Below are positions 15,219 to 62,014 of a DNA stretch of 64,000 nucleotides, piece by piece. The DNA is from Bacteroidaceae bacterium. Lineage in GTDB: Bacteria > Bacteroidota > Bacteroidia > Bacteroidales > Bacteroidaceae. The first letter of the stretch is position 1; every line of letters begins with the position of its first letter. A program made the translations under genes and the position numbers. The DNA lies in NCBI GenBank assembly GCA_017429525.1, contig JAFROT010000030.1, positions 113,776 to 177,775 of the forward strand. Reading direction: 5' to 3'. Below the pieces are notes generated by a model, which searched no databases, had not been told where the DNA came from, and was given only the letters and a program-made list of their open reading frames with translations.

Positions 15219-15290
15219 CAGCGGAACTGATACCCTTTCGAGGGCTTTCAGGTGAAAAATCGTATAAATAAACATCAAAACATACCCATT

Positions 15291-18200
15291 ATGAAGACCA
15301 AATGCTTTACTTTCCTACTCGCTCTCCTCTTCACCGCTATGGGGGGAGTCAACGCTGCAGGGACATATACCGTTAGGGTCACTGATGGCTACACCCTCAG
15401 TACGTCAGACTTACAAGCAATCACGGTGCTTGTTACTCAGAACGTCATCTCCCTTACGACTTCGGGCAACCTTAGAATCGTCAAGAACTCCAGTGGCACT
15501 ACGCTATTCAATATTGATTGGGATACGCGGACATGCTATCTGTCTTCCAGCACCTCCAGTGCCAACAACATGTTGAGTTCAATCACTTTAAGCTCAACCC
15601 AGTTGATAAACATAAACGCCCCCTCCATGGTGAACTACACCTCTATCGCCATGACGTTTCCCGACCCAGAGGCTTACGCCGCGCGCCTTAACAACAAGTT
15701 GACGTTCTACTACGACCATCAGAGGTCCGTCCATACCACTACCTACTCGTTGAACACCGGCAGCAACAACCCAGGCTGGTACAGCATAAGCGGGAGCATC
15801 ACTTCGGTGGAGTTCAATCAGACATTTGCCAACGCCCGCCCCACCAGCTGCTACCGTTGGTTCGCTGAAATGACGAGCATCACTAACATCACAGGACTGA
15901 ACTACCTCAACACCAGCAACGTCACCAACATGAGTTACATGTTCGACGGCAGCACTGGCTTCAACAGCCTCGATGTGAGCGCCCTCAACACCGCCAACGT
16001 CACCAACATGGAAGCAATGTTCAGGAACTGCACAGGCCTCTCTGGCCTCTATGTGAGCTCTCTCAACACTGCCAAGGTCACCAACATGAAGGAAATGTTC
16101 AAGAACTGTAGTGGCATTGTTAACCTCGACTTGAGCAGCCTCAATGTTGCCAATGTCACGACGACAACTGGCATACTCCAAGGCTGCAGTGAGCTGAAAA
16201 GCCTGAACCTTAGCGCCGCGTTGTTAAACAAGATCGAGGATGGCGGTTGCTCGGGCATCGGCACCACCACCAGCCCCTGTGCACTCTACTATCCCACAAC
16301 CTCGCACCCGACGTTCAGCGAGGCCACTAACGTCTACGTCAAATGGAAGGGCGGCTACTTCAACAGCGCGAACAGGAGGACCTACGCCTACATGAGCGGC
16401 ACTACCCTCATCTTCTGCTACGACGATTACTACGATTCAAGGAAGGCCTCTTCGACCGTCTACGACCTGAATTACGGTAGCAACAACCCAAGTTGGTACA
16501 GCAACCGCACGAACATCAGTTCGGTGTCGTTCAGTTCCTCGTTTGCCAATGCCCGCCCCCTCACCTGCTACATGTGGTTCTCTGGAATGAGCAACCTGAC
16601 CAGCATCTCGGGGCTGACCAACCTCAACACCAGCAGCGTCACCAACATGTATGGCATGTTTTCCCTTTGCCAACAGCTCACGAGCCTCAACGTGAGCTCG
16701 TTCAACACCAGCAACGTCACCAACATGGAATCCATGTTCGCAGGACTGAGCCAAGTCAAGAGCCTCAACGTGAGCTCGTTCAACACCGCGAAGGTCACCA
16801 ACATGCAAAATATGTTCAAGAACTGCAGCCAAGTTACCAGCCTCAACCTAAGCAACTTCACGATAACCAGCTCGACGAACACCTCAGGCATGCTCAACAA
16901 CATGCTCGGCTTGCAGACACTGACCCTCTCCACCTCCTTGGTGAACTATCTGAACAGCACGGCCTGCACACATATCGGCACTGACATTTACGGCACCCTC
17001 ACCACGCCCTGCACGCTCATCTATCCCGCCAATCTACACCTGACATTCACGGAGGTGGGGCCAAACTACGTGAAGTGGAAGGATGGCTACTTCACCGACC
17101 CCAACATGAAACCCTACGCCTGCCTCAGTGGCAACACCCTCACGTTCTACTACGATGACAATTACACATCGAGACAGGCTACCTCGACGGTCTACGACTT
17201 GACCACCAGCGACAGACCTGGTTGGTACAACAGCCGTCAAAACATCACGTCGGTCGTGTTCAACTCATCGTTTGCCAATGCCCGCCCCACCACCTGCGAG
17301 AGTTGGTTCGAAGGTATGAACAACCTCACCACCATCACGGGGTTGAGCAACCTCAATACGAGCAATGTCACCAACATGGCTGGGATGTTCAACGGTTGCT
17401 CGCGCCTCACCAGCCTCAACCTGAACCTGAGTACCTTCAACACATCCAACGTCACCGATATGGCATCGATGTTCTACGGCTGCTCGAGCCTCACCAGCCT
17501 CAATGTGAGCAACTTCAATACGGCCAAAGTCACCGATATGTACCGCATGTTCTACGGATGCTCGAGTCTCACCACTCTCAATGCGAACAACTTCAATACG
17601 ACCAAGGTCACCGACTTTCAAGAGATGTTCTACGGCTGCTCGGGGCTGAAGAGCCTCGACGTGAGCAGCTTCGTTACCAATGTAGACGCCGATTGGGTGA
17701 GAGGCTTCGTGAGTGGCTGCACGGCGTTGGAGAGCCTGAGCCTTAGTGCATCGCTGACGAGCCGAATCGAGGTCAATGGCTGCACCGACATCGGCACCGC
17801 CACAGCACCCTGCACACTCATTTATCCCACCTCCGTGTGCCTGTCTTACAGCGATGCTACTCCCACCTATTTCAGATGGAAGGGAGGCTACTTCACCAGC
17901 CCCAATGTGAAGCCCTACGCCTGTCTGCGCGGGAACATCCTCACCTTCCACTACGACGACCAATACGTGACAAGTCAAGCCTCCTCGACGGTCTACGACT
18001 TGAACACTGGATTAGACGACCCAACCTGGATTAGCAGCGCTGAGAGTATCACAGAAGTGGAGTTCGCCGCTTCGTTCCGCAATGCCCGCCCCACCAGTTG
18101 CCGAGCATGGTTCGCTATGATGAGCAACCTCACCTCTATTACGGGACTGAACTACCTCAACACCAGCGAAGTCACCAATATGGCATACATGTTTATGAAC

Positions 18201-19616
18201 TGCAGCCACTTCGACGACTTGGATTTGAGCCAACTCAATACCTCCAAAGTCACTACCATGGAAGGTATGTTTTTCGGTTGTACCCCACTCATCAATCTGA
18301 ACATCAGCTCATTCAATACCGAGAATGTCACCAATATGTCGTACATGTTCTACACCTGCCGCGGGCTGGAGGACCTTGACTTGAGTAACTTCAATGCTGA
18401 ACATGTCACCAACACGGAAAGAATGTTCTTTTACTGCTCTGGGCTGGAGAGCCTCAGCTTGAGTGCAGCGCTCGCGACCAATATGAATAATAATGCCTGC
18501 GAAGGCGTAGGCACGGCCGAGTCGCCTTGCGTGCTCAACTATCCTTCTGATGTGGAACTGACATTCACGGAGGTGACGCCAAACTACGTGAAGTGGAAGA
18601 TTGGTTACTTCCTCCCCAACGCGAGTTTGGTGAAAGCCTATGCCGTGTTCTATGGCAATACGCTTACCTTCTACTATGATGACGCATCCTCTTCAAAGAG
18701 CGGCACAGTCTACAAGTTGAACACGGCCGAAAACGACCCGGCCTGGATTCCTAACGCTGAGAGTATCACAGAAGTGGTGTTCGACGCTTCGTTCAGCGAT
18801 GCCCGCCCCACCAGTTGCTACGCATGGTTCGCTAGGATGAAAAACCTCACCTCTATTACGGGACTAAACTACCTCAACACCAGCGAAGTCACCACCATGG
18901 CAAACATGTTTATGAACTGCAGTGGCTTCACCAACTTGGATTTGAGCCAACTCAACACGACCAACGTCACCAATATGTCGCAAATGTTCTACCGCTGTAC
19001 GAACCTTACCAACCTCGATGTGAGCCACTTCAACACCGCTAATGTCGAGAGCATGTATGCGATGTTCTTCCAATGCCTCAGCCTTACCAGCCTCGACGTG
19101 AGCAATTTCAACACAGCCAACGTCCGTTCTATGTCTGCCATGTTCAACTCCTGTAGTAGCCTTACAAGCCTCAATGTAAGCAACTTCCAAACCGACAACA
19201 TCACGGATACTATGGACACGGAAGGGATGTTCTACAACTGCTCTGGGATGAAGAGCTTAAGTTTAAGTGCCGCGCTCATAGACGTCATACATCCAGATGC
19301 CTGCTCAAGCGTGGGCACGACGGAGTCGCCCTGCGTGCTCATCTATCCCGAAGGCTGCTCGATTGAAAAAGATGAGATAGGAGACGGTTGGTTCCGCTGG
19401 AGTAACGGATACTTCACCGAGGCGCCCGCTTACCTAATGGGTGATGTGAACAGCGACGACAAGGTGACCATTGCCGACGTGACGGCACTCGTCAACATCA
19501 TCCTCGGCAAAGACTCCGCCGGACTCTACAACCGCGACGCAGCCGACGTGAACGGCGACCATCAAGTCACGATTGCCGATGTGACGGCGCTGGTAAACTT
19601 GATTCTCGGGAAATAA
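15291..19616 (+). CDS. BspA-type leucine-rich repeat surface protein with C-terminal dockerin-like pair
   Basis: Signal peptide MKTKCFTFLLALLFTAMGGVNA. Five ~240-270-aa modules, each with TLTFYYDD...SFANARPTSC..WF followed by NTSNVTNMxxMFxxCSxLxSL repeats. C-terminus GDVNSDDKVTIADVTALVNIILGK...ADVNGDHQVTIADVTALVNLILGK. The listed ORF starts at a GTG at 15252. Confidence 0.85.
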   Translation: MKTKCFTFLLALLFTAMGGVNAAGTYTVRVTDGYTLSTSDLQAITVLVTQNVISLTTSGNLRIVKNSSGTTLFNIDWDTRTCYLSSSTSSANNMLSSITLSSTQLININAPSMVNYTSIAMTFPDPEAYAARLNNKLTFYYDHQRSVHTTTYSLNTGSNNPGWYSISGSITSVEFNQTFANARPTSCYRWFAEMTSITNITGLNYLNTSNVTNMSYMFDGSTGFNSLDVSALNTANVTNMEAMFRNCTGLSGLYVSSLNTAKVTNMKEMFKNCSGIVNLDLSSLNVANVTTTTGILQGCSELKSLNLSAALLNKIEDGGCSGIGTTTSPCALYYPTTSHPTFSEATNVYVKWKGGYFNSANRRTYAYMSGTTLIFCYDDYYDSRKASSTVYDLNYGSNNPSWYSNRTNISSVSFSSSFANARPLTCYMWFSGMSNLTSISGLTNLNTSSVTNMYGMFSLCQQLTSLNVSSFNTSNVTNMESMFAGLSQVKSLNVSSFNTAKVTNMQNMFKNCSQVTSLNLSNFTITSSTNTSGMLNNMLGLQTLTLSTSLVNYLNSTACTHIGTDIYGTLTTPCTLIYPANLHLTFTEVGPNYVKWKDGYFTDPNMKPYACLSGNTLTFYYDDNYTSRQATSTVYDLTTSDRPGWYNSRQNITSVVFNSSFANARPTTCESWFEGMNNLTTITGLSNLNTSNVTNMAGMFNGCSRLTSLNLNLSTFNTSNVTDMASMFYGCSSLTSLNVSNFNTAKVTDMYRMFYGCSSLTTLNANNFNTTKVTDFQEMFYGCSGLKSLDVSSFVTNVDADWVRGFVSGCTALESLSLSASLTSRIEVNGCTDIGTATAPCTLIYPTSVCLSYSDATPTYFRWKGGYFTSPNVKPYACLRGNILTFHYDDQYVTSQASSTVYDLNTGLDDPTWISSAESITEVEFAASFRNARPTSCRAWFAMMSNLTSITGLNYLNTSEVTNMAYMFMNCSHFDDLDLSQLNTSKVTTMEGMFFGCTPLINLNISSFNTENVTNMSYMFYTCRGLEDLDLSNFNAEHVTNTERMFFYCSGLESLSLSAALATNMNNNACEGVGTAESPCVLNYPSDVELTFTEVTPNYVKWKIGYFLPNASLVKAYAVFYGNTLTFYYDDASSSKSGTVYKLNTAENDPAWIPNAESITEVVFDASFSDARPTSCYAWFARMKNLTSITGLNYLNTSEVTTMANMFMNCSGFTNLDLSQLNTTNVTNMSQMFYRCTNLTNLDVSHFNTANVESMYAMFFQCLSLTSLDVSNFNTANVRSMSAMFNSCSSLTSLNVSNFQTDNITDTMDTEGMFYNCSGMKSLSLSAALIDVIHPDACSSVGTTESPCVLIYPEGCSIEKDEIGDGWFRWSNGYFTEAPAYLMGDVNSDDKVTIADVTALVNIILGKDSAGLYNRDAADVNGDHQVTIADVTALVNLILGK

Positions 19617-45632: not shown

Positions 45633-45640
45633 TACCTTTG
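45633..45640 (+). promoter_or_regulatory. -7 box (TAccTTTG) for nadB
   Basis: tacctttg overlaps the listed start at 45638, so the ATG at 45680 is the likely start. Confidence 0.5.
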
Positions 45641-45679
45641 TGCCGTAAAAAGTCAATTCCTTTAACTTACAACAAATCG

Positions 45680-47269
45680 ATGATTCGCAAATTCGACTTC
45701 CTCATCATCGGCTCGGGCGTGGCCGGAATGAGTTATGCCCTGAAGGTCGCTCAAAGCGGCAAGGGCAAGGTAGCGCTCATCTGCAAGACAACTATCGACG
45801 AGGCCAACACGGACAAAGCGCAGGGCGGCGTGGCCTCGGTGACCAACCTAAAGGTAGATAACTTCGAGAAGCACATCCACGACACGATGGTGGCTGGCGA
45901 CTTCATCTCCGACCCCGCAGCCGTGGAACAGGTGGTCAGGAACGCGCCGAAGGGCATCGCCGACCTGGTGAAGTGGGGCGTCAACTTCGACAAGAACGAG
46001 GACGGCGAGTTCGACCTCCATCGAGAGGGCGGCCACTCGGAGTTCCGCATCCTTCATCACGCCGACGACACGGGTCACGAGATTCAGCAGGGACTGATTC
46101 GCGCCGTACGTGCCGACAAGCGCATCACGGTTCTGGAGAACCACTTTGCCGTGGAGATCATCACGCAGCACCACTTGGGCCGCGAGGTGAACCGCCACAT
46201 GACGGACATCGAGTGCTACGGCGCCTACGTGCTGGACCCCGACACGCAGAAGATCGACACCTTCCTCTCGCGCGTCACGCTGATGGCCACGGGCGGCACC
46301 GGTGCCGTCTACGCCACGACGACGAACCCGAATATCGCCACGGGCGACGGCATCGCCATGGTCTATCGTGCCAAGGGCATCGTCAAGGACATGGAGTTCG
46401 TGCAGTTCCACCCCACAGCGCTCTACAACCCGGCAGAGACGCATCCCGCCTACCTCATCACCGAGGCCATGCGTGGCTACGGCGGCATCCTGCGCCTGCC
46501 TAACGGCGAGGAGTTTATGCAGAAGTACGACAAGCGCCTCTCGCTGGCGCCGCGCGACATCGTGGCACGTGCCATCGACAAGGAGATGAAGATCCACGGC
46601 ATCGACCACGTTTGTCTGGACGTGACGCACAAGAATGCCGAGGAGACGAAGCATCACTTCCCCAATATCTACGCCAAGTGCCTCTCGATAGGCATCGACA
46701 TCACGAAGCAGATGATCCCCGTCGTGCCTTGCGCCCATTACATGTGCGGCGGCATCAAGGTCAACCTCAACGCCGAGAGCACCATCCACCGCTTGTATGC
46801 CGTAGGCGAATGTTCGTGCACGGGCCTGCACGGCGGCAACCGCCTGGCCTCCAACTCGCTCATCGAGGCCGTGGTCTATGCCGACAAGGCTGCCGAGCAC
46901 TCGATTGCCCACATCGACGACTACACGTTCAACGAGCAGGTGCCCGAATGGAACGACGAGGGCACGATGACCAACGAGGAGAAGGTGCTCATCGCCCAGG
47001 ACATGAAGGAAGTAGGACAAATCATGTCGAACTACGTCGGCATCGTACGCTCCGACCTTCGCCTGCACCGTGCCTGGACACGACTCGACATCATCTACGA
47101 GGAGACTGAAGAACTGTTCAAACGCGTGAAGGCGTCGAAGGACATCTGTGAGTTGCGCAACATGGTCAACGTGGGTTACCTGATCACGCGGCAGGCCATC
47201 GAGCGCAAGGAGAGCCGCGGCCTCCACTACACCGTCGACTATCCCAAGCACGCCTACGACCAGAAATAA
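45680..47269 (+). CDS. nadB: L-aspartate oxidase
   Basis: FDFLIIGSGVAGMSYAL FAD motif, QGGVA, HPTAL, RLASNSLIEAVV. ~530 aa. Confidence 0.92.
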   Translation: MIRKFDFLIIGSGVAGMSYALKVAQSGKGKVALICKTTIDEANTDKAQGGVASVTNLKVDNFEKHIHDTMVAGDFISDPAAVEQVVRNAPKGIADLVKWGVNFDKNEDGEFDLHREGGHSEFRILHHADDTGHEIQQGLIRAVRADKRITVLENHFAVEIITQHHLGREVNRHMTDIECYGAYVLDPDTQKIDTFLSRVTLMATGGTGAVYATTTNPNIATGDGIAMVYRAKGIVKDMEFVQFHPTALYNPAETHPAYLITEAMRGYGGILRLPNGEEFMQKYDKRLSLAPRDIVARAIDKEMKIHGIDHVCLDVTHKNAEETKHHFPNIYAKCLSIGIDITKQMIPVVPCAHYMCGGIKVNLNAESTIHRLYAVGECSCTGLHGGNRLASNSLIEAVVYADKAAEHSIAHIDDYTFNEQVPEWNDEGTMTNEEKVLIAQDMKEVGQIMSNYVGIVRSDLRLHRAWTRLDIIYEETEELFKRVKASKDICELRNMVNVGYLITRQAIERKESRGLHYTVDYPKHAYDQK

Positions 47270-47291: not shown

Positions 47292-47338
47292 AGCAGCCAG
47301 GAGCTACAATTGAAAGCATTTCTGGCTGCTTTTTTGTT
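47292..47338 (+). terminator. rho-independent terminator of nadB
   Basis: agcagccag (47292-47300) pairs with ctggctgct (47322-47330), followed by tttttgtt. Confidence 0.75.
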
Positions 47339-47421
47339 CATTTACTTTGATTTATATCAATAAAGGATATATTTTTACAGAAAAAGAAAAGAAAAAGTGT
47401 TCAGGTTACACATATTCGCCG

Positions 47422-47429
47422 TACCTTTG
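47422..47429 (+). promoter_or_regulatory. -7 box (TAccTTTG) with no downstream ORF
   Basis: tacctttg lies after the nadB terminator. The next feature on this strand is a strong terminator at 47716. Confidence 0.5.
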
Positions 47430-47435
47430 CAGCGT

Positions 47436-47752
47436 CAAAGAGATGACAAGACGTCTCGCGAGAGACTCAAGATATACGGTTTTTCATGGTATTAGGTTAG
47501 TTTTAAAGGTTTTCATCACCGAGTAGCATTGCTACTCATCTTTAGGTAAGTTAGTTAAGGTAAGTTGATTGCAGGATTCCCCAAGTGGGAATCGCAGAAT
47601 AACGCAAGCACAACTGTCGCAGTGATGCGATAGAAAAAGCAAAAGGACGCATCATCGGATGTGTATTCCAAAAGGTTATTCTGAGAGATTCAACAAAGAT
47701 TTGTTCATAGCTAAGGCGCGGCTCTTCGTGAGAAGGGCCGCGTTTGTTTTGT
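47436..47752 (+). ncRNA. candidate ~315-nt small RNA, unclassified
   Basis: Bounded by its own -7 box and a 12-bp GC-rich terminator with a U-tract. Internal hairpins gagtagc/gctactc (47521-47537) and gattccc/gggaatc (47575-47593). Only very short ORFs. Ends are approximate. Confidence 0.5.
47716..47752 (+). terminator. rho-independent terminator
   Basis: gcgcggctcttc gtga gaagggccgcgt followed by ttgttttgtg. Confidence 0.8.
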
Positions 47753-47797: not shown

Positions 47798-49885
47798 CTA
47801 CAAGGGATCGACGTCAAAAAGGATCTGGCCGGAGGCGAAGGCTTTTTGCGCGAGGAGGTCGGTGCGCATGCTAAGGAGGTTCTGCTTGATGCGAGCGATG
47901 GGGAGGCTGCGCTCAAGCTTCAAGATGATGCGCCTGATGCTGAGGCCCTGAACACGAGCCACGGGCGGCTCATCGGGACCGAGGACACGGGTTCCGAGCA
48001 GCTGACGCAGGCGGAGGGTCAGTTCGCGGGCGAGCAGATCGGCATCGGCAGCACGACGGTGCCGCACATAGACGATAATCATCTGCATGAAAGGAGGATA
48101 AGCGAACTCACGACGCTCGAGCATCTGCTCGCGGTAGGCGCTGGCATAGTCGTCGGCCACGACTTGACGGATTAGCGAGAGGTCGGGCGTCAGCGTCTGC
48201 AAGAGGACGTAGCCACGGCTGTCGCGACGTCCGGCACGCCCTGCCACTTGCGTCAGCATCTGGAACGAACGCTCGTAGGCGCGGAAATCGGGCTGACAGA
48301 GCATCGTATCGGCCGAGAGGATGCCTACGACGCTGACGCGGCCGAAGTCGAGCCCTTTGGCTACCATCTGCGTACCCACGAGGATGTCGGTGCGGTGGGC
48401 GGCGAAGTCTTCGAGGATCTGCTCGTAGGCCGTGCGTGTGCGCGTCGTATCGAGGTCGAGACGAGCAATGCGTGCCTCAGGGAATAGCTTTTGGAGGTCC
48501 TCCTCGATACGCTCCGTGCCGAAGCCCCGGCTGCGAAGGTCGGGATTCTCACAAGCAGGGCACTGGGCCGGTATCTCGGTGGTGAAGCCGCAGTAGTGGC
48601 ACGTCATGCGGCCCGACTTCTTGTGGAGCGTCAGTGGGACGTCGCAATGAGGGCAACGCGGTACCCAACCGCAGACGTGGCACTGCACATGAGGGGCGTA
48701 ACCACGACGGTTCTGGAAGAGGATAACCTGCTCGCCTGCCTCGAGAGCCGCACGCGTGCGGTCGAGCAACTGCGGCGAGAAAGGGCCTGTCATGCGACGT
48801 TTGCGGCGCAGTTCGCTCACGTCGACGACCTCAACCTCGGGCAACTGCACGCGCCCATAACGCTCGCTGAGCTCTACGAGGCCATACTTGCCCATGCGCG
48901 CATTGTAATAGCTCTCGAAGGAGGGCGTAGCGGTGCCGAGGAGGGTAAGTGCCTTGGCTCGCGAAGCCATGAGGATGGCAACGCTACGGGCGCTGTAACG
49001 CGGTGCTGGCTCCTGTTGCTTGAAGTTGACCTCGTGCTCCTCGTCGACGATGACGAGCCCGAGGCGCTGGAACGGAAGGAAGACTGACGAACGGACGCCC
49101 ACGATGATATCGTAAGGCTGAGTCGAGAGTTGGCGCCACCAGACGTCGGCACGCTCCTTGTCGGTGAACTTGCTGTGGTAGACGCCCATACGCTCACCGA
49201 AGACGGCACGCAGGCGGTCGGTGAGCTGCGTCGTGAGGACAATCTCGGGCAGCAGATACAATACCTGCTTGCCTTGGGCGATGGCCTCAGCAATCAGATG
49301 AATATAGACCTCCGTCTTGCCTGCCGACGTGACGCCATGAAAGAGGCAGACGGGATGCTGCTGCCACTGATTCCTGATGCTCGAGAGGGCTGCGGACTGA
49401 GCGGGGGAGAGAGCGGGTACGGAAGGCCCACCCTCCTGCCCCTCCGCTGTAGGAAAAGTCGCAAGATGTACTGAGTAGGCATCCGCCTCCTTGTCTCCTT
49501 GAGCCTGTCTTTCAGAGTATTTACTCCCCTCTCTACGAGAGCGTGACAGGGGGGTGGGCCTTCTTTTCAACTTCCCTGGCAGTGCGGCTTTGAAGACCTC
49601 GCCGATGGAGCAGAGGTAGTAGTCGGCTATCCACTGCCAGAGGCTGAGTTGCTGCGGCAGGATGACTGGTGTGGCGTCAACGACTTCCAATATCTGCTTG
49701 ACTTCGATGCCAACAGGGGCTTGATCATGAAGACGTACGACGAGTCCGACGAGCGATTGCCGATTGCCAAAAGGCACGAGAACACGACACCCTGCCTGCG
49801 GCGGAGTAGCCAGCGCGTCGGGCAGAGCGTAAGTGAACAGTCCCTGAAGCGGGACAGGTATGATGACGTCGGCGAAATGCGACAT
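47798..49885 (-). CDS. priA: primosomal replication restart helicase PriA
   Basis: MSHFADVIIPVPL N-terminus. Walker A GVTSAGKTEVY, DEEH (IVDEEHE). Cys-rich zinc region CHVCGWVPRCPHCDVPLTLHKKSGRMTCHYCG...CPAC. Confidence 0.92.
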   Translation of the reverse strand: MSHFADVIIPVPLQGLFTYALPDALATPPQAGCRVLVPFGNRQSLVGLVVRLHDQAPVGIEVKQILEVVDATPVILPQQLSLWQWIADYYLCSIGEVFKAALPGKLKRRPTPLSRSRREGSKYSERQAQGDKEADAYSVHLATFPTAEGQEGGPSVPALSPAQSAALSSIRNQWQQHPVCLFHGVTSAGKTEVYIHLIAEAIAQGKQVLYLLPEIVLTTQLTDRLRAVFGERMGVYHSKFTDKERADVWWRQLSTQPYDIIVGVRSSVFLPFQRLGLVIVDEEHEVNFKQQEPAPRYSARSVAILMASRAKALTLLGTATPSFESYYNARMGKYGLVELSERYGRVQLPEVEVVDVSELRRKRRMTGPFSPQLLDRTRAALEAGEQVILFQNRRGYAPHVQCHVCGWVPRCPHCDVPLTLHKKSGRMTCHYCGFTTEIPAQCPACENPDLRSRGFGTERIEEDLQKLFPEARIARLDLDTTRTRTAYEQILEDFAAHRTDILVGTQMVAKGLDFGRVSVVGILSADTMLCQPDFRAYERSFQMLTQVAGRAGRRDSRGYVLLQTLTPDLSLIRQVVADDYASAYREQMLERREFAYPPFMQMIIVYVRHRRAADADLLARELTLRLRQLLGTRVLGPDEPPVARVQGLSIRRIILKLERSLPIARIKQNLLSMRTDLLAQKAFASGQILFDVDPL

Positions 49886-50586: not shown

Positions 50587-50750
50587 TAACGGGAACGATA
50601 ACGAAAACGTTAACTAGCTGCGCGTTGGGAGGGGTAACGGGAACGAAAACGAAAACGTTAACTAGCTGCGCGTTGAGGGGTAACGAGTAGATCGTTTTGG
50701 TGTTCACACCAGGAAGGAGGTTTTCGTTTTCGTTAACGTTTTCGTTGATT
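50587..50750. repeat. ~48-bp tandem repeat (2 copies) of aacgaaaacg words plus an inverted partial copy
   Basis: taacgggaacgataacgaaaacgttaactagctgcgcgttgggagggg (50587-50634) and a 46-bp variant (50635-50680). Inverted ttttcgttttcgttaacgttttcgtt at about 50721-50746. Confidence 0.85.
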
Positions 50751-58797: not shown

Positions 58798-58846
58798 CAA
58801 GCAAATCGAAACTTTTACCTACTTACTAACTTAAAAAAATGCTCAG

Positions 58847-61800
58847 ATGAAGAAAAGTAAATGTTATCTATTAGGCATCGTGGCGCTGTTGTGCCTCCTG
58901 CCTAATGTAGTGTTTGCCCAGGATCTGACGGTACAAGGAACGGTGAACGACGAGACGGGAGAACCGATGATCGGCGCCACCGTTAAAGTTCAGGGAAGTG
59001 GTCACGGGACTGTCACCGACATCGACGGCCATTTCCGCCTGACACCAGTCAAGCGCGGAGCAACACTTGAGTTTTCCTACATGGGCTACCTGACCCAGAC
59101 GCGTAAGGCTGACGGTCGCGCCATCGTCATCACGCTTCAGCCCGATACGAAGGCTCTCGAAGAAGTGGTAGTCATCGCCTATGGTCAACAGAAGAAGCTC
59201 ACCATCACGGGTGCTGTCTCGGCCGTCGGTGGTGAGGAACTGCTGAAGGCTCCTGTGCCTAACGTCGAGAACGCCCTTCAGGGCCGCCTGCCCGGTATCT
59301 CGGTCGTTCAAGGCTCAGGTATGCCAGGCGAAGAATCGAACACGATTCGTGTGCGCGGTATCGGCTCTCTCAACAGCGCGGACCCCCTCGTGCTGGTGGA
59401 CGGTGTTGAACGTCCGTCGCAGTCGTTCGGTCAGATCGACCCCAATGAAATTGAGGACATCACCATCCTGAAGGATGCCTCGGCGACGGCTGTGTTCGGC
59501 GTGCGAGGCGCTAACGGCGTCATTCTCATCACCACCAAGCGCGGTGCCCCCGGCAAGGCTGAGGTGACCGTCTCGGCCAGCACAGCCGTACAGACGATCT
59601 CCAAGTTCGTGGACTTCGCAGACTCCTACACTTATGGAAAGATGTGGAACTACACGGCCATCACCGACGCTCTGCCCATGGATCAATGGCCTGGAACGAC
59701 TGTTATTCCCGACTATTCGAAATACAGCGACACCGGCATCCGCTTCAGCCAAGACGTGATGGAGCACTTCCGCACGGGTGACATGCCCGTCACGTTCCCC
59801 AACACGGACTGGATTAACTACATGATGAAGGACGCCGCGTGGCAGGAGCAGGCCAACGTGAACGTGCGAGGCGGCACAGACCGTGTTCGCTACTTCGTTT
59901 CAGCGGGCTTCATGAATCAGAACTCTCTCTTCAAGACGTTCTCGCAGAATGACGATGAGACGTTCAAATACAGACGCTTCAACTATCGCGCCAACTTGGA
60001 CATCGACGTGTCGAAATACAGCCAGTTGTCGCTGACGCTGGGCGGCCGCGTACAGAATCGCACCACAATGGGCGGTGGCGAGGGCTTCATCTTCCGCTAC
60101 CTGCAAGGCGCTACGCCTTACGCCGGTATCGGCGTTGACGATCAGGGCCGCCACATTGTAGCCGATGAGAATATCGTAGGCCCCTACGACCGCGATGCCC
60201 TCTCGAACTATTACGACCTGGGATTCGTCAATCAGAGCAACAACGTGCTGAGCCTGGACCTCCAGTACAAACTCGACATGAGTTTCCTCACCCCTGGTCT
60301 GGACTTCAAGGTAAAGGGATCCTACAATACCGATTATACCGCGCGTAAGAACCGCCAGAATGGCTTCGGCACGGGCGTGACCTACGTGGCCACCCTCGTC
60401 GACGGCGAAGAAGTGCTTCGCAAAGAGGGCGTGACCTGGCCTATTCCTTACAGCGAGAGCAAGTGGGGCAACCGCAACTGGTATGCAGAAGCCAGCTTCA
60501 ACTACGCCCGCAAGTTTGACAAGCACAACGTGGGCGCCCTGCTGCTGTACAACCAGAGCAAGACCTATTATCCCTGGGACTCCGACAACAGCCTGTACCA
60601 GTCGATTCCTAAGGGATATGTCGGCCTTGTGGGTCGCGTCACCTACGACTACGACACGCGCTACCTGCTCGACTTCAACATCGGTTACAACGGCTCCGAG
60701 AACTTCGCCGAGGGCAAGCGTTACGGCACCTTCCCCTCCTTCTCCGCAGGTTGGATCATCTCGAACGAAAAGTTCTGGCAGCCCCTGGAGAACGTTATCG
60801 GTTACCTGAAACTCCGTGGATCGTGGGGTAAGGTCGGTAACGACAACACCAACGGTGCCCGCTTCCTCTATCTGCCCGGCGCATGGCAGTTCTATCAGGG
60901 CTCTATGACGGGCAACCCGCAGAACCGCGGCGCCAACTTCGGCACGAGCGGCAACTGGCTGCAAGCGGTGAAGGAGCTGACGGCTGGTAACCCGAACGTC
61001 ACTTGGGAAACCGCTTCAAAGGTCAACCTGGGTGTTGATGCCGCCCTCTTCAGCGACCGCCTGATGATCAACTTCGATATCTTCTGGGAAGATCGCAAGG
61101 ACATCCTCGTCTCCAACGCCTCGCTGCTTCCTGCCGTGACCAGCCTTCCTGGCAGCTACGTCAACGAGGGCCGCGTGAAGAACCACGGTTACGAGCTGAC
61201 CCTGAAATGGTCCGACAAAGTCGGTAAATTCCGCTACAGCATCAGCCCAAGCTTAGCCTATGCCCGCAACAAGATTATCGAGATGCTCGAGGTTCCGCCT
61301 TTGTATGACTACCTCAGCCGCACAGGCCTGCCCGTAGGTCAGCGCTTCGGCTACGATCTCTTCGAGTTCTATCAGCCCGGCACCGAGGACCGCTATAAGG
61401 CTAAGTTCGGCGTCGACATGCCCAACCAGCAGTACGATATTAAATATGGTGACGCTGTCTATGTCGACTTGAATGGCGACGGCCTCATCGATCAGAACGA
61501 CCAGAAGCCTATCGGCTACACCGACGTCCCGGAACTCACGTGGAGCGTAAATGGCAATCTGAGCTGGAAGGGCTTCGACCTCTCTATGCTCTGGGTAGGT
61601 GCAGAACGCACGAGCCGTATGCTCAATGGCTACTTCCGCGACCAGTTCGGCTCTACGAACACCTCGGCCCTCGTCCAGTGGGTTGCCGACAACTCCTGGA
61701 CTGAGGACAATCCCGACGCTATCCTGCCGCGTATCTCATTTACCAACCGTGTCCACAACAACCACGACTCACAGGCATGGCTCGTCAACTCAAGATACGT

Positions 61801-62014
61801 GCGTCTGAAGAACGTTGAACTCGGCTACACGTTCAATAAGATTCGTTTCCTGCCGCTGCTCAACTACATCCGACTCTACGCTTCAGGCCAGAACCTGCTG
61901 ACCTTCTCAGACTTCAAAGGCAACGACCCCGAGGCTCCCGGCTCAGGACTTGACTATGGTTTGCGCTATCCTATGACGCGCGTATATAATTTTGGTGTAC
62001 AAGTGAACTTCTAA
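58847..62014 (+). CDS. SusC/RagA family TonB-dependent outer-membrane transporter
   Basis: Signal peptide. Carboxypeptidase-regulatory-like domain (LTVQGTVNDETGEPMIGATVKV). Plug (VVVIAYGQQKK...IRVRGIGS). 1055 aa ending ...YNFGVQVNF. Confidence 0.93.
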   Translation: MKKSKCYLLGIVALLCLLPNVVFAQDLTVQGTVNDETGEPMIGATVKVQGSGHGTVTDIDGHFRLTPVKRGATLEFSYMGYLTQTRKADGRAIVITLQPDTKALEEVVVIAYGQQKKLTITGAVSAVGGEELLKAPVPNVENALQGRLPGISVVQGSGMPGEESNTIRVRGIGSLNSADPLVLVDGVERPSQSFGQIDPNEIEDITILKDASATAVFGVRGANGVILITTKRGAPGKAEVTVSASTAVQTISKFVDFADSYTYGKMWNYTAITDALPMDQWPGTTVIPDYSKYSDTGIRFSQDVMEHFRTGDMPVTFPNTDWINYMMKDAAWQEQANVNVRGGTDRVRYFVSAGFMNQNSLFKTFSQNDDETFKYRRFNYRANLDIDVSKYSQLSLTLGGRVQNRTTMGGGEGFIFRYLQGATPYAGIGVDDQGRHIVADENIVGPYDRDALSNYYDLGFVNQSNNVLSLDLQYKLDMSFLTPGLDFKVKGSYNTDYTARKNRQNGFGTGVTYVATLVDGEEVLRKEGVTWPIPYSESKWGNRNWYAEASFNYARKFDKHNVGALLLYNQSKTYYPWDSDNSLYQSIPKGYVGLVGRVTYDYDTRYLLDFNIGYNGSENFAEGKRYGTFPSFSAGWIISNEKFWQPLENVIGYLKLRGSWGKVGNDNTNGARFLYLPGAWQFYQGSMTGNPQNRGANFGTSGNWLQAVKELTAGNPNVTWETASKVNLGVDAALFSDRLMINFDIFWEDRKDILVSNASLLPAVTSLPGSYVNEGRVKNHGYELTLKWSDKVGKFRYSISPSLAYARNKIIEMLEVPPLYDYLSRTGLPVGQRFGYDLFEFYQPGTEDRYKAKFGVDMPNQQYDIKYGDAVYVDLNGDGLIDQNDQKPIGYTDVPELTWSVNGNLSWKGFDLSMLWVGAERTSRMLNGYFRDQFGSTNTSALVQWVADNSWTEDNPDAILPRISFTNRVHNNHDSQAWLVNSRYVRLKNVELGYTFNKIRFLPLLNYIRLYASGQNLLTFSDFKGNDPEAPGSGLDYGLRYPMTRVYNFGVQVNF

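Follow-up and report, generated by a model that had tools for sequence, protein, structure and literature searches.

To our knowledge, few base-pairing small RNAs (sRNAs) have been characterized experimentally in Bacteroidota, namely GibS, FopS, MasB, and BatR in Bacteroides thetaiotaomicron and SrcF in Segatella copri. In B. thetaiotaomicron, a seed termed R1/R1′ is common to GibS and 14 FopS sRNAs; it pairs with the start-codon region of target mRNAs and blocks translation initiation, and the targets of FopS are susC homologues (PMC11697453, PMC7366714). R1 also lies within a 41-nt motif that is the most enriched among sRNAs bound by RbpB, a protein that counteracts FopS (PMC11697453, PMC7366714). 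Here we describe a predicted RNA of ~315 nt encoded in the spacer between nadB and priA in a 64-kb stretch of Bacteroidales DNA (the window, to which all coordinates refer), the closest relatives of which are uncultured rumen metagenome-assembled genomes (MAGs; RUG14845 and RUI002). Judged from its sequence, this RNA represents a real and previously undescribed sRNA family of uncultured rumen Bacteroidales that is in no RNA database, and it carries an R1 seed within a scaffold of a different kind.

A first-pass annotation of the window, made from the letters and a list of open reading frames (ORFs), had proposed that the spacer holds a stand-alone, noncoding promoter-to-terminator unit of ~315 nt. 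Homologues were collected at 30 loci from rumen MAGs and metagenomes (L001, L081–L085, and L094–L117), those at the nadB-adjacent loci L001 and L081–L085 by nhmmer and the remainder by a 20-mer scan of metagenome contigs. The 20-mer, taken from a block common to the five sequences found by gene neighborhood, returned 24 metagenome contigs, and all 24 contained full-length members. The resulting 23 distinct full-length sequences have a mean column identity of 65%. Compared with L001, the nearest relative, the RNA (47434–47748) differs by 8 substitutions and 6 gapped positions, with indels of 1–2 nt, and is thus ~97% identical at aligned bases, versus 91% for nadB DNA, ~87% for priA, and 40–45% for the two flanking spacers, which are unalignable. 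The conserved span extends from ~47346, just 5′ of the first of two upstream palindromes, to the end of a terminator U-tract. Taken together, these conservation limits, a retained promoter box and terminator, covarying helices, and the lack both of a conserved ORF and of an Rfam match at threshold support the proposed unit.

The predicted promoter consists of an exact match to the Bacteroidota-type −7 box, TACCTTTG, at 47422–47429 (plus strand, as are the RNA features below), as the first-pass annotation had stated. The pattern TAnnTTTG matches 34 times in the window versus 20.9 expected, and a single box is therefore not rare; the box carries weight because it occupies the identical alignment position in all 23 full-length homologues. 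The usual box-to-start distance would place the transcription start at ~47431–47436. At the other end, the scanner detected an intrinsic terminator at 47714–47752, the GC-rich hairpin of which (47714–47745) comprises 14 pairs, 8 of them G–C, closed by a 4-nt GUGA loop and followed by GTTTTGT, again in agreement with the earlier reading. A U-tract terminator ends the RNA in 23 of 23 sequences.

Two conserved palindromes precede the promoter. The first, TTGATTTATATCAA (47347–47360), conforms to TTGAY-N4-RTCAA, is centered ~80 bp 5′ of the predicted start, and constitutes a candidate activator site. It is present in all 22 distinct upstream regions, 75–76 bp before the −7 box in 20 of them and 85–86 bp before it in the other two, a displacement of 10–11 bp or about one helical turn. 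The second, GTGT-N7-ACAC (47397–47411), overlaps the −33 region as a candidate operator and occurs in 21 of the 22 regions, 25–26 bp before the box. Each pattern has a single match in the 64-kb window. The TTGAY/RTCAA half-sites match those of the classical FNR box, and the palindrome resembles an FNR/CRP-family box. Neither palindrome matches the motif of the Bacteroides Crp protein BT4338 (TATGTTnTAnAACATA). The conservation of both sites suggests that the RNA gene is under transcription-factor control.

The genomic setting of the RNA changes across the family. In the window, priA does converge on the RNA from the minus strand, as had been noted, and the nadB–priA arrangement holds; it is not conserved, however, with nadB linkage found in about half of the loci and priA linkage confined to the window's two closest relatives. 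A PriA-anchored search of genome contigs retrieved the RNA in L001 alone among 80 loci, and the NadB-anchored loci L086–L089 and L090–L093 lack it. Diverged copies at other NadB-anchored loci (69–79% identity) lie 3′ of nadB, with mutS or ldh as the next gene or beyond an inserted sigma-factor cassette. Upstream neighbors across the family include nadB and genes for BirA-like, thioredoxin-like, M24 peptidase, SDR, and LrgB or ODP proteins, while downstream neighbors, in either orientation, include priA, mutS, and genes for phosphoribosyltransferase, Trans_reg_C, and MiaB-like proteins. There is one copy of the RNA in the window and one per locus. Because the promoter box and terminator are kept in all full-length members while the neighbors change, the spacer RNA is best explained as an independent gene with its own promoter and its own Rho-independent terminator, conserved independently of what surrounds it. 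The upstream gene, drawn from at least nine unrelated families, is co-oriented with the RNA in all 22 loci that have a detectable upstream ORF, which may mean that divergent promoters are selected against or that read-through contributes.

The first-pass annotation had described the interval as holding only ORFs of 17 aa or less, which was incorrect: a 27-aa ORF with an ATG start (47443–47526) and a 22-aa ORF with a TTG start (47565–47633) lie inside the predicted transcript. Across the 23 homologues, neither keeps its frame, position, or sequence. Indels relative to L001 shift every frame, those affecting the 27-aa ORF falling at 47451–47452 and after 47466, and each member has its longest ATG ORF in a different frame and place and with a different sequence. 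Three candidate ORFs in the window (59, 121, and 71 aa) gave no Pfam match. The RNA thus has no conserved coding potential.

Per-sequence folding and alignment of the 23 sequences yielded the layout of the RNA, which measures ~315 nt from predicted start to U-tract in the window and 284–349 nt across the family. No shuffled version folds as well as the whole RNA (z −4.9), and a scaffold of covarying helices, P0–P6, holds three invariant C-poor segments. The 5′ end is formed by P0 (47434–47447), a small hairpin whose stem varies between members (GUCA/UGAC, the form in the window, GUCUU/AAGAC, and GUCCUU/AAGGAC), and by P1 (47453–47466), a hairpin with a GNRA tetraloop (GUCUC-GCGA-GAGAC) in a region of variable length; the loop becomes GUGA in L001, and other members carry longer insertions at P1. 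Block 1 follows, 43 nt (47474–47516) identical in 23 of 23 sequences and already identical in the five found by gene neighborhood alone. It contains the R1-type seed GUUUUUCAUGGUAUUAG (47479–47495) and a second, shorter, invariant seed copy with the UUCAU motif, AGGUUUUCAU (47507–47516).

Block 1 is separated by P2 (47521–47537) from block 2 (47540–47574; CUUUAGGUAAGUUAGUUAAGGUAAGUUGAUUGCAG), a C-poor segment with repeated AGGUWAGUU motifs that is nearly invariant in the alignment. P2, which the first-pass annotation had picked out, has a variable stem that forms in 23 of 23 sequences, with five of six aligned pairs changed on both sides. P2 and the terminator considered together are 93.9% paired, with 13 of 20 pairs changed on both sides, a level reached by 0 of 500 shuffles; slid controls were just 41–59% paired. 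For the terminator itself, 96.9% of cells are paired and 8 of 14 pairs have changed on both sides. Over 47521–47545, the FopS covariance model aligns its terminator hairpin with P2 and its U-tail with AUCUUUAGGU, and P2 could be a former or leaky terminator that would yield a short isoform of ~100 nt. The terminator scanner did not flag P2, which is without the U-tract terminator signature.

The 3′ half of the RNA is organized by P4, a long-range helix between CAGAAUAAC (47595–47603) and GUUAUUCUG (47675–47683) that encloses P5 and P6. In P4, 98.5% of cells are paired and both sides have changed in five of nine pairs; the enclosed domain (47595–47683) folds at −29.1 kcal/mol (z −5.6). P3 (47575–47593), a variable hairpin 5′ of this domain, had also been proposed by the first pass and does form in the window and most members, but it is optional, being missing in L082, L084, L099, L106, L095, and L098. 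P5 (47614–47633) has an invariant core, CGCA-GUGA-UGCG, and variable outer pairs, while the stem sequences of P6 (47647–47664) differ between per-sequence folds, its pair counts being weak owing to poor MAFFT register. A further pairing suggested earlier, gatgcg with cgcatc across 47622–47655, finds no support, as these bases belong to the separate hairpins P5 and P6; the substitution G47649A in L001 would break it but turns a G–U pair of P6 into A–U. Beyond P4, block 3 (AGAGAUUCAACAAAGAUUUGUUCAUAGC, 47684–47711) is a conserved 3′ block in which AAGATTTGTTCATAG is invariant in 23 of 23 sequences; an invariant 15-mer at 47696–47710 contains a third, degenerate seed-like motif with UUCAU, GAUUUGUUCAUAG.

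Scanning the whole window with the Rfam 15 covariance models identified no family at gathering score, in line with the earlier observation that the RNA lacks the hallmarks of tmRNA, RNase P RNA, SRP RNA, and 6S RNA. A permissive scan (E up to 10) placed FopS (RF04319) at 47477–47547 with 21.1 bits and E 0.25–1, the gathering score being 56. Other permissive matches, to L20_leader, CsrC, BTnc231, BTnc060, and eukaryotic or archaeal snoRNA and miRNA models, were mainly terminator-driven or at chance level. In the FopS match, 17 of 17 consecutive bases (47479–47495) are identical to positions 3–19 of the FopS consensus, its 5′ seed; allowing up to three mismatches brings no second occurrence of this 17-mer in the window.

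Resemblance to FopS goes somewhat further than the identical seed. The sequence that follows is similarly rich in U, A, and G (UUAGGUUAG / UUUAAGGUU), the promoter is a canonical TAnnTTTG and the terminator has a GUGA tetraloop, and the RNA shows in silico a preference for a SusC-like initiation region, the validated FopS target class (PMC11697453). The differences are nevertheless substantial. At ~315 nt versus 65–70 nt, the RNA is 4–5 times longer than FopS, and its seed is internal, whereas that of FopS lies in a single-stranded 5′ end with the terminator directly after it. The two extra seed-like copies and the three-helix 3′ domain (P4–P6) have no counterpart in FopS, one copy is seen per locus, compared with 12–15 paralogues per Bacteroides genome, and the conserved upstream palindromes belong to the RNA described here. 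By its covariance-model score and its length, and by where its seed lies, the RNA falls outside FopS, and the one copy seen per locus would agree; we class it as a putative architectural variant of the R1-seed (GibS/FopS-type) regulatory RNAs.

GibS (BTnc035) of B. thetaiotaomicron shares other traits with this RNA, being intergenic and single-copy, with an R1 seed, more than one pairing region, internal hairpins, and a Rho-independent terminator (PMC7366714, PMC11697453). A near-palindromic, promoter-proximal motif also hints at a dedicated regulator of GibS (PMC7366714, PMC11697453). GibS differs in being 145 nt long and largely unstructured, with a 5′-terminal R1 and a noncanonical PM2 promoter, and in its position between pab and glycogen operons. 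Compared by description, then, the two have R1 in common but are set apart by length, promoter type, and locus. SrcF (ScnR276) of S. copri, from the Prevotella group, is likewise an intergenic sRNA with a structured body and a 3′ stem-loop, 272 nt in length (bioRxiv 10.1101/2024.04.05.588293). It is linked to the expression of genes for polysaccharide-utilization loci and nutrient uptake and is carbohydrate-controlled, a likeness drawn from its description alone; S. copri sRNAs are reported to show little conservation outside Segatella (bioRxiv 10.1101/2024.04.05.588293).

The R1 seed is also found in viral DNA. In IMG/VR, the R1 17-mer heads at least 120 short sRNA-like stretches in viral or prophage contigs (within L125–L204). 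Among the matches listed, these units consist of a promoter-like region, the seed, and a GUGA-loop terminator within ~30–60 nt, which corresponds to a short FopS-like form. The terminator of one short subtype carries CGCAGUGAUGCG, identical to the 12-mer CGCA-GUGA-UGCG of P5. Because only 1 of 15 sampled R1-seed units reaches the FopS gathering score, the Rfam model is narrow, and R1-seed sRNAs are a wider group than the Rfam family. A 21-mer specific to the family described here was absent from 2.9 million viral contigs. Several of the IMG/VR R1 units adjoin tRNA- or tmRNA-like sequence; in L142 (129–312), for instance, a FopS match at 129–222 is followed by a tRNA at 226–312.

Since the invariant core carries the R1 seed of GibS and FopS, we propose that the RNA is probably, though by no means securely, a transcription-factor-controlled, trans-acting, base-pairing sRNA from an independent gene that targets translation-initiation regions. 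Transcription would begin a few bases past the −7 box and end at the GUGA-loop intrinsic terminator. On the model of FopS, the AUG-AAA region of a target mRNA would be bound by the CAU of the seed together with the adjoining U-rich stretch, and the A/C/U-rich 5′ untranslated region by the AGGUWAGUU repeats, so that the initiation region would be occluded and translation repressed. The mRNAs of SusC-like outer-membrane transporters would be the most likely target class, and an RbpB-type RRM protein may bind the R1 motif and modulate the activity of the RNA. The function so described rests on analogy and on targets predicted in silico.

The window and the collected loci hold a single SusC-like gene (58847–62014; Pfam CarboxypepD_reg and Plug), and ranking against 498 initiation regions, together with orthologues, was used in place of a SusC enrichment test. 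Positions 47474–47575 were co-folded with gene regions from −40 to +15. For the initiation region of the SusC-like gene (58807–58861, plus strand), a candidate target, the predicted interaction reaches −22.4 kcal/mol versus −10.7 ± 3.3 for shuffles and ranks first of 50 in the window and fourth of 498 across all collected loci. Placed among the same 498, the orthologous SusC regions of four other assemblies would come 7th, 10th, 19th, and 186th, and three of the four were significant. These results make targeting of SusC-like mRNA a lead, not a demonstration. No exact complementary k-mers of 11 nt or more to block 1 were found, and a window scan by RNAduplex with the three blocks was uninformative, given that the G–U-rich blocks form long interrupted duplexes with GC-rich coding sequence. 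At 58839–58850, a three-codon upstream ORF (AUG CUC AGA UGA) has its stop overlapping the AUG of the SusC-like gene at 58847; it is not shared by the orthologues examined.

Several observations weigh against this proposal. The target lead comes from one gene family, the orthologous regions share a coding start and are not independent, and one of the five was not significant. Contiguous complementarity of at least 10 nt (with at most one G–U) to the three blocks occurs across the window at background frequency (29 matches). Similarity to FopS beyond the 17-mer is not significant (21 bits versus 56, E 0.25–1), and comparison of the family profile with the FopS-like R1-seed viral loci by nhmmer gave E values above 0.4, which is seed-level similarity alone; the shared seed could be convergence rather than common descent. 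The seed also lies ~45 nt inside the RNA, behind P0 and P1, and is not 5′-terminal as in FopS and GibS; no −7 box lies directly 5′ of this internal seed. Its predicted accessibility is only moderate, with mean unpaired probabilities of 0.43 for R1a and 0.37 for block 2, compared with 0.39 for the whole RNA. An RRM/RNP1 motif search of all collected DNA uncovered no gene for an RRM protein. Finally, because the metagenome subset was retrieved with a 20-mer inside block 1, its members necessarily agree at those 20 bases.

The main rival to direct pairing, unlikely but deserving of weight, holds that the RNA is a decoy: an RbpB-type RRM protein would be titrated, or complementary RNAs sponged, by its four AGGUWAGUU repeats and three R1-like motifs, and this would indirectly tune other R1-seed sRNAs in the manner of CsrB or 6S RNA. 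Repeated invariant motifs on a long, structured scaffold are what such a role would lead one to expect, and the invariance of all block bases suits recognition by a protein at least as well as imperfect pairing. The 41-nt R1 motif is the top RbpB-binding motif, and RbpB antagonizes FopS in B. thetaiotaomicron (PMC11697453). The weak alignment to the CsrC model, far below threshold, mirrors a layout of repeated single-stranded motifs. The missing RRM gene counts here too, however, and pairing with the SusC-like region, in the top 1% of the 498 regions, would be needless for a pure decoy. The RNA could act both as a decoy and by direct pairing.

Spot 42 (spf) of Enterobacteria offers a comparison for how such a pairing RNA might be deployed. 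This stand-alone, Hfq-linked sRNA of 109 nt is transcribed under a CRP/FNR-family regulator site, uses three single-stranded pairing regions in combination, and controls genes for sugar uptake and catabolism. The analogy concerns regulatory logic alone, the two RNAs being unrelated in sequence, size, phylum, and chaperone. A bolder version of the pairing hypothesis, which we regard as quite unlikely, would make the RNA a fused "triple-seed" derivative of FopS-type units (seed-hairpin, seed-hairpin, seed-terminator). As a single master regulator under an FNR/CRP-family sensor, it would couple a redox or carbon signal to simultaneous multisite repression or bridging of SusC-type mRNAs and replace the 12–15 dispersed FopS paralogues in fiber-degrading rumen Bacteroidales.

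It is very improbable that the RNA is instead a cis element, whether derived from the 3′ untranslated region or left as the processed tail of the co-oriented upstream gene, or serving the gene that follows, for example mutS, as a leader or attenuator. The consistent co-orientation of upstream genes noted above would accord with it, as would the presence of mutS next on the same strand in several loci, but those upstream genes come from unrelated families, and the window, L001, L082, L108, and other loci have a downstream gene that converges on the RNA. In the window, moreover, nadB has a terminator of its own at 47293–47338 (−21.8 kcal/mol, z −3.6, followed by T6), as the first-pass annotation had recognized; a simple scanner did not flag it for the sole reason that its loop exceeds 8 nt. 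The −7 box and two operator-like sites conserved 5′ of the RNA, and the U-tract terminator that closes it throughout, likewise speak for a separate transcription unit.

We give even less credence to a decaying concatemer of FopS-like units or a functionless remnant of a mobile element. The idea draws on the layout of seed, hairpin, and U-rich tail that appears three times (block 1 with P2, block 2 with P5, and R1c with the terminator), on the identity of the P5 loop sequence with the terminator loop of a short R1-sRNA subtype, and on the frequency of R1 sRNAs in viral and prophage contigs. Decay is difficult to reconcile with an RNA more conserved than the essential genes flanking it and with helices maintained by compensatory changes, and the viral contigs lack the family-specific 21-mer; there is also a single copy per locus, with no repeats or transposase genes beside the RNA. 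A small protein or dual-function RNA is barely credible, for although the predicted transcript includes the 27-codon ATG frame, which crosses block 1, indels disrupt this frame in L001 and most members lack an equivalent, and block 1 is invariant everywhere, would-be synonymous sites included. A trans-acting, base-pairing sRNA thus remains the account we favor.

The genes that flank the RNA in the window were assigned from their domains. The ORF at 45638–47269 (plus strand) encodes the L-aspartate oxidase NadB (Pfam FAD_binding_2, 2e-89, and Succ_DH_flav_C; homologues are named L-aspartate oxidase). The ORF list starts nadB at TTG 45638, and since the NadB homologues are all 529 aa, the true start is probably ATG 45680. 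NadB is unusually conserved, with 88% amino acid identity to Paraprevotella, while PriA drops to ~60%. PriA is encoded at 47798–49885 on the minus strand (Pfam 3'BD, DEAD, Zn-ribbon, and PriA_C domains), convergent with nadB across a spacer of 528 bp. Elsewhere in the window, two direct copies of ~38 nt, 48 nt apart, lie in an intergenic region at 50608–50680 (AACGAAAACGTTAACTAGCTGCGCGTTG.GGGGTAACG), and a 1454-aa ORF at 15252–19616 (plus strand) has DUF285 repeats and LRR together with a type I dockerin domain at its C terminus, a module of the cellulosome type found here in Bacteroidales DNA.

The R1 seed, the central module of the RbpB/FopS network that controls polysaccharide-utilization loci, occurs in uncultured rumen Bacteroidales as well, within an RNA that is far larger, is structured, is present in one copy per locus, and has conserved operator-like sites of its own. 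If our reading is correct, Rfam could gain a new family, for which 23 seed sequences and a structure backed by covariation are available, and the RNA would illustrate how sRNAs evolve in modules, the same seed serving in more than one scaffold. It would also be a testable candidate regulator of SusC-like transporters in ruminant plant-fiber degraders.

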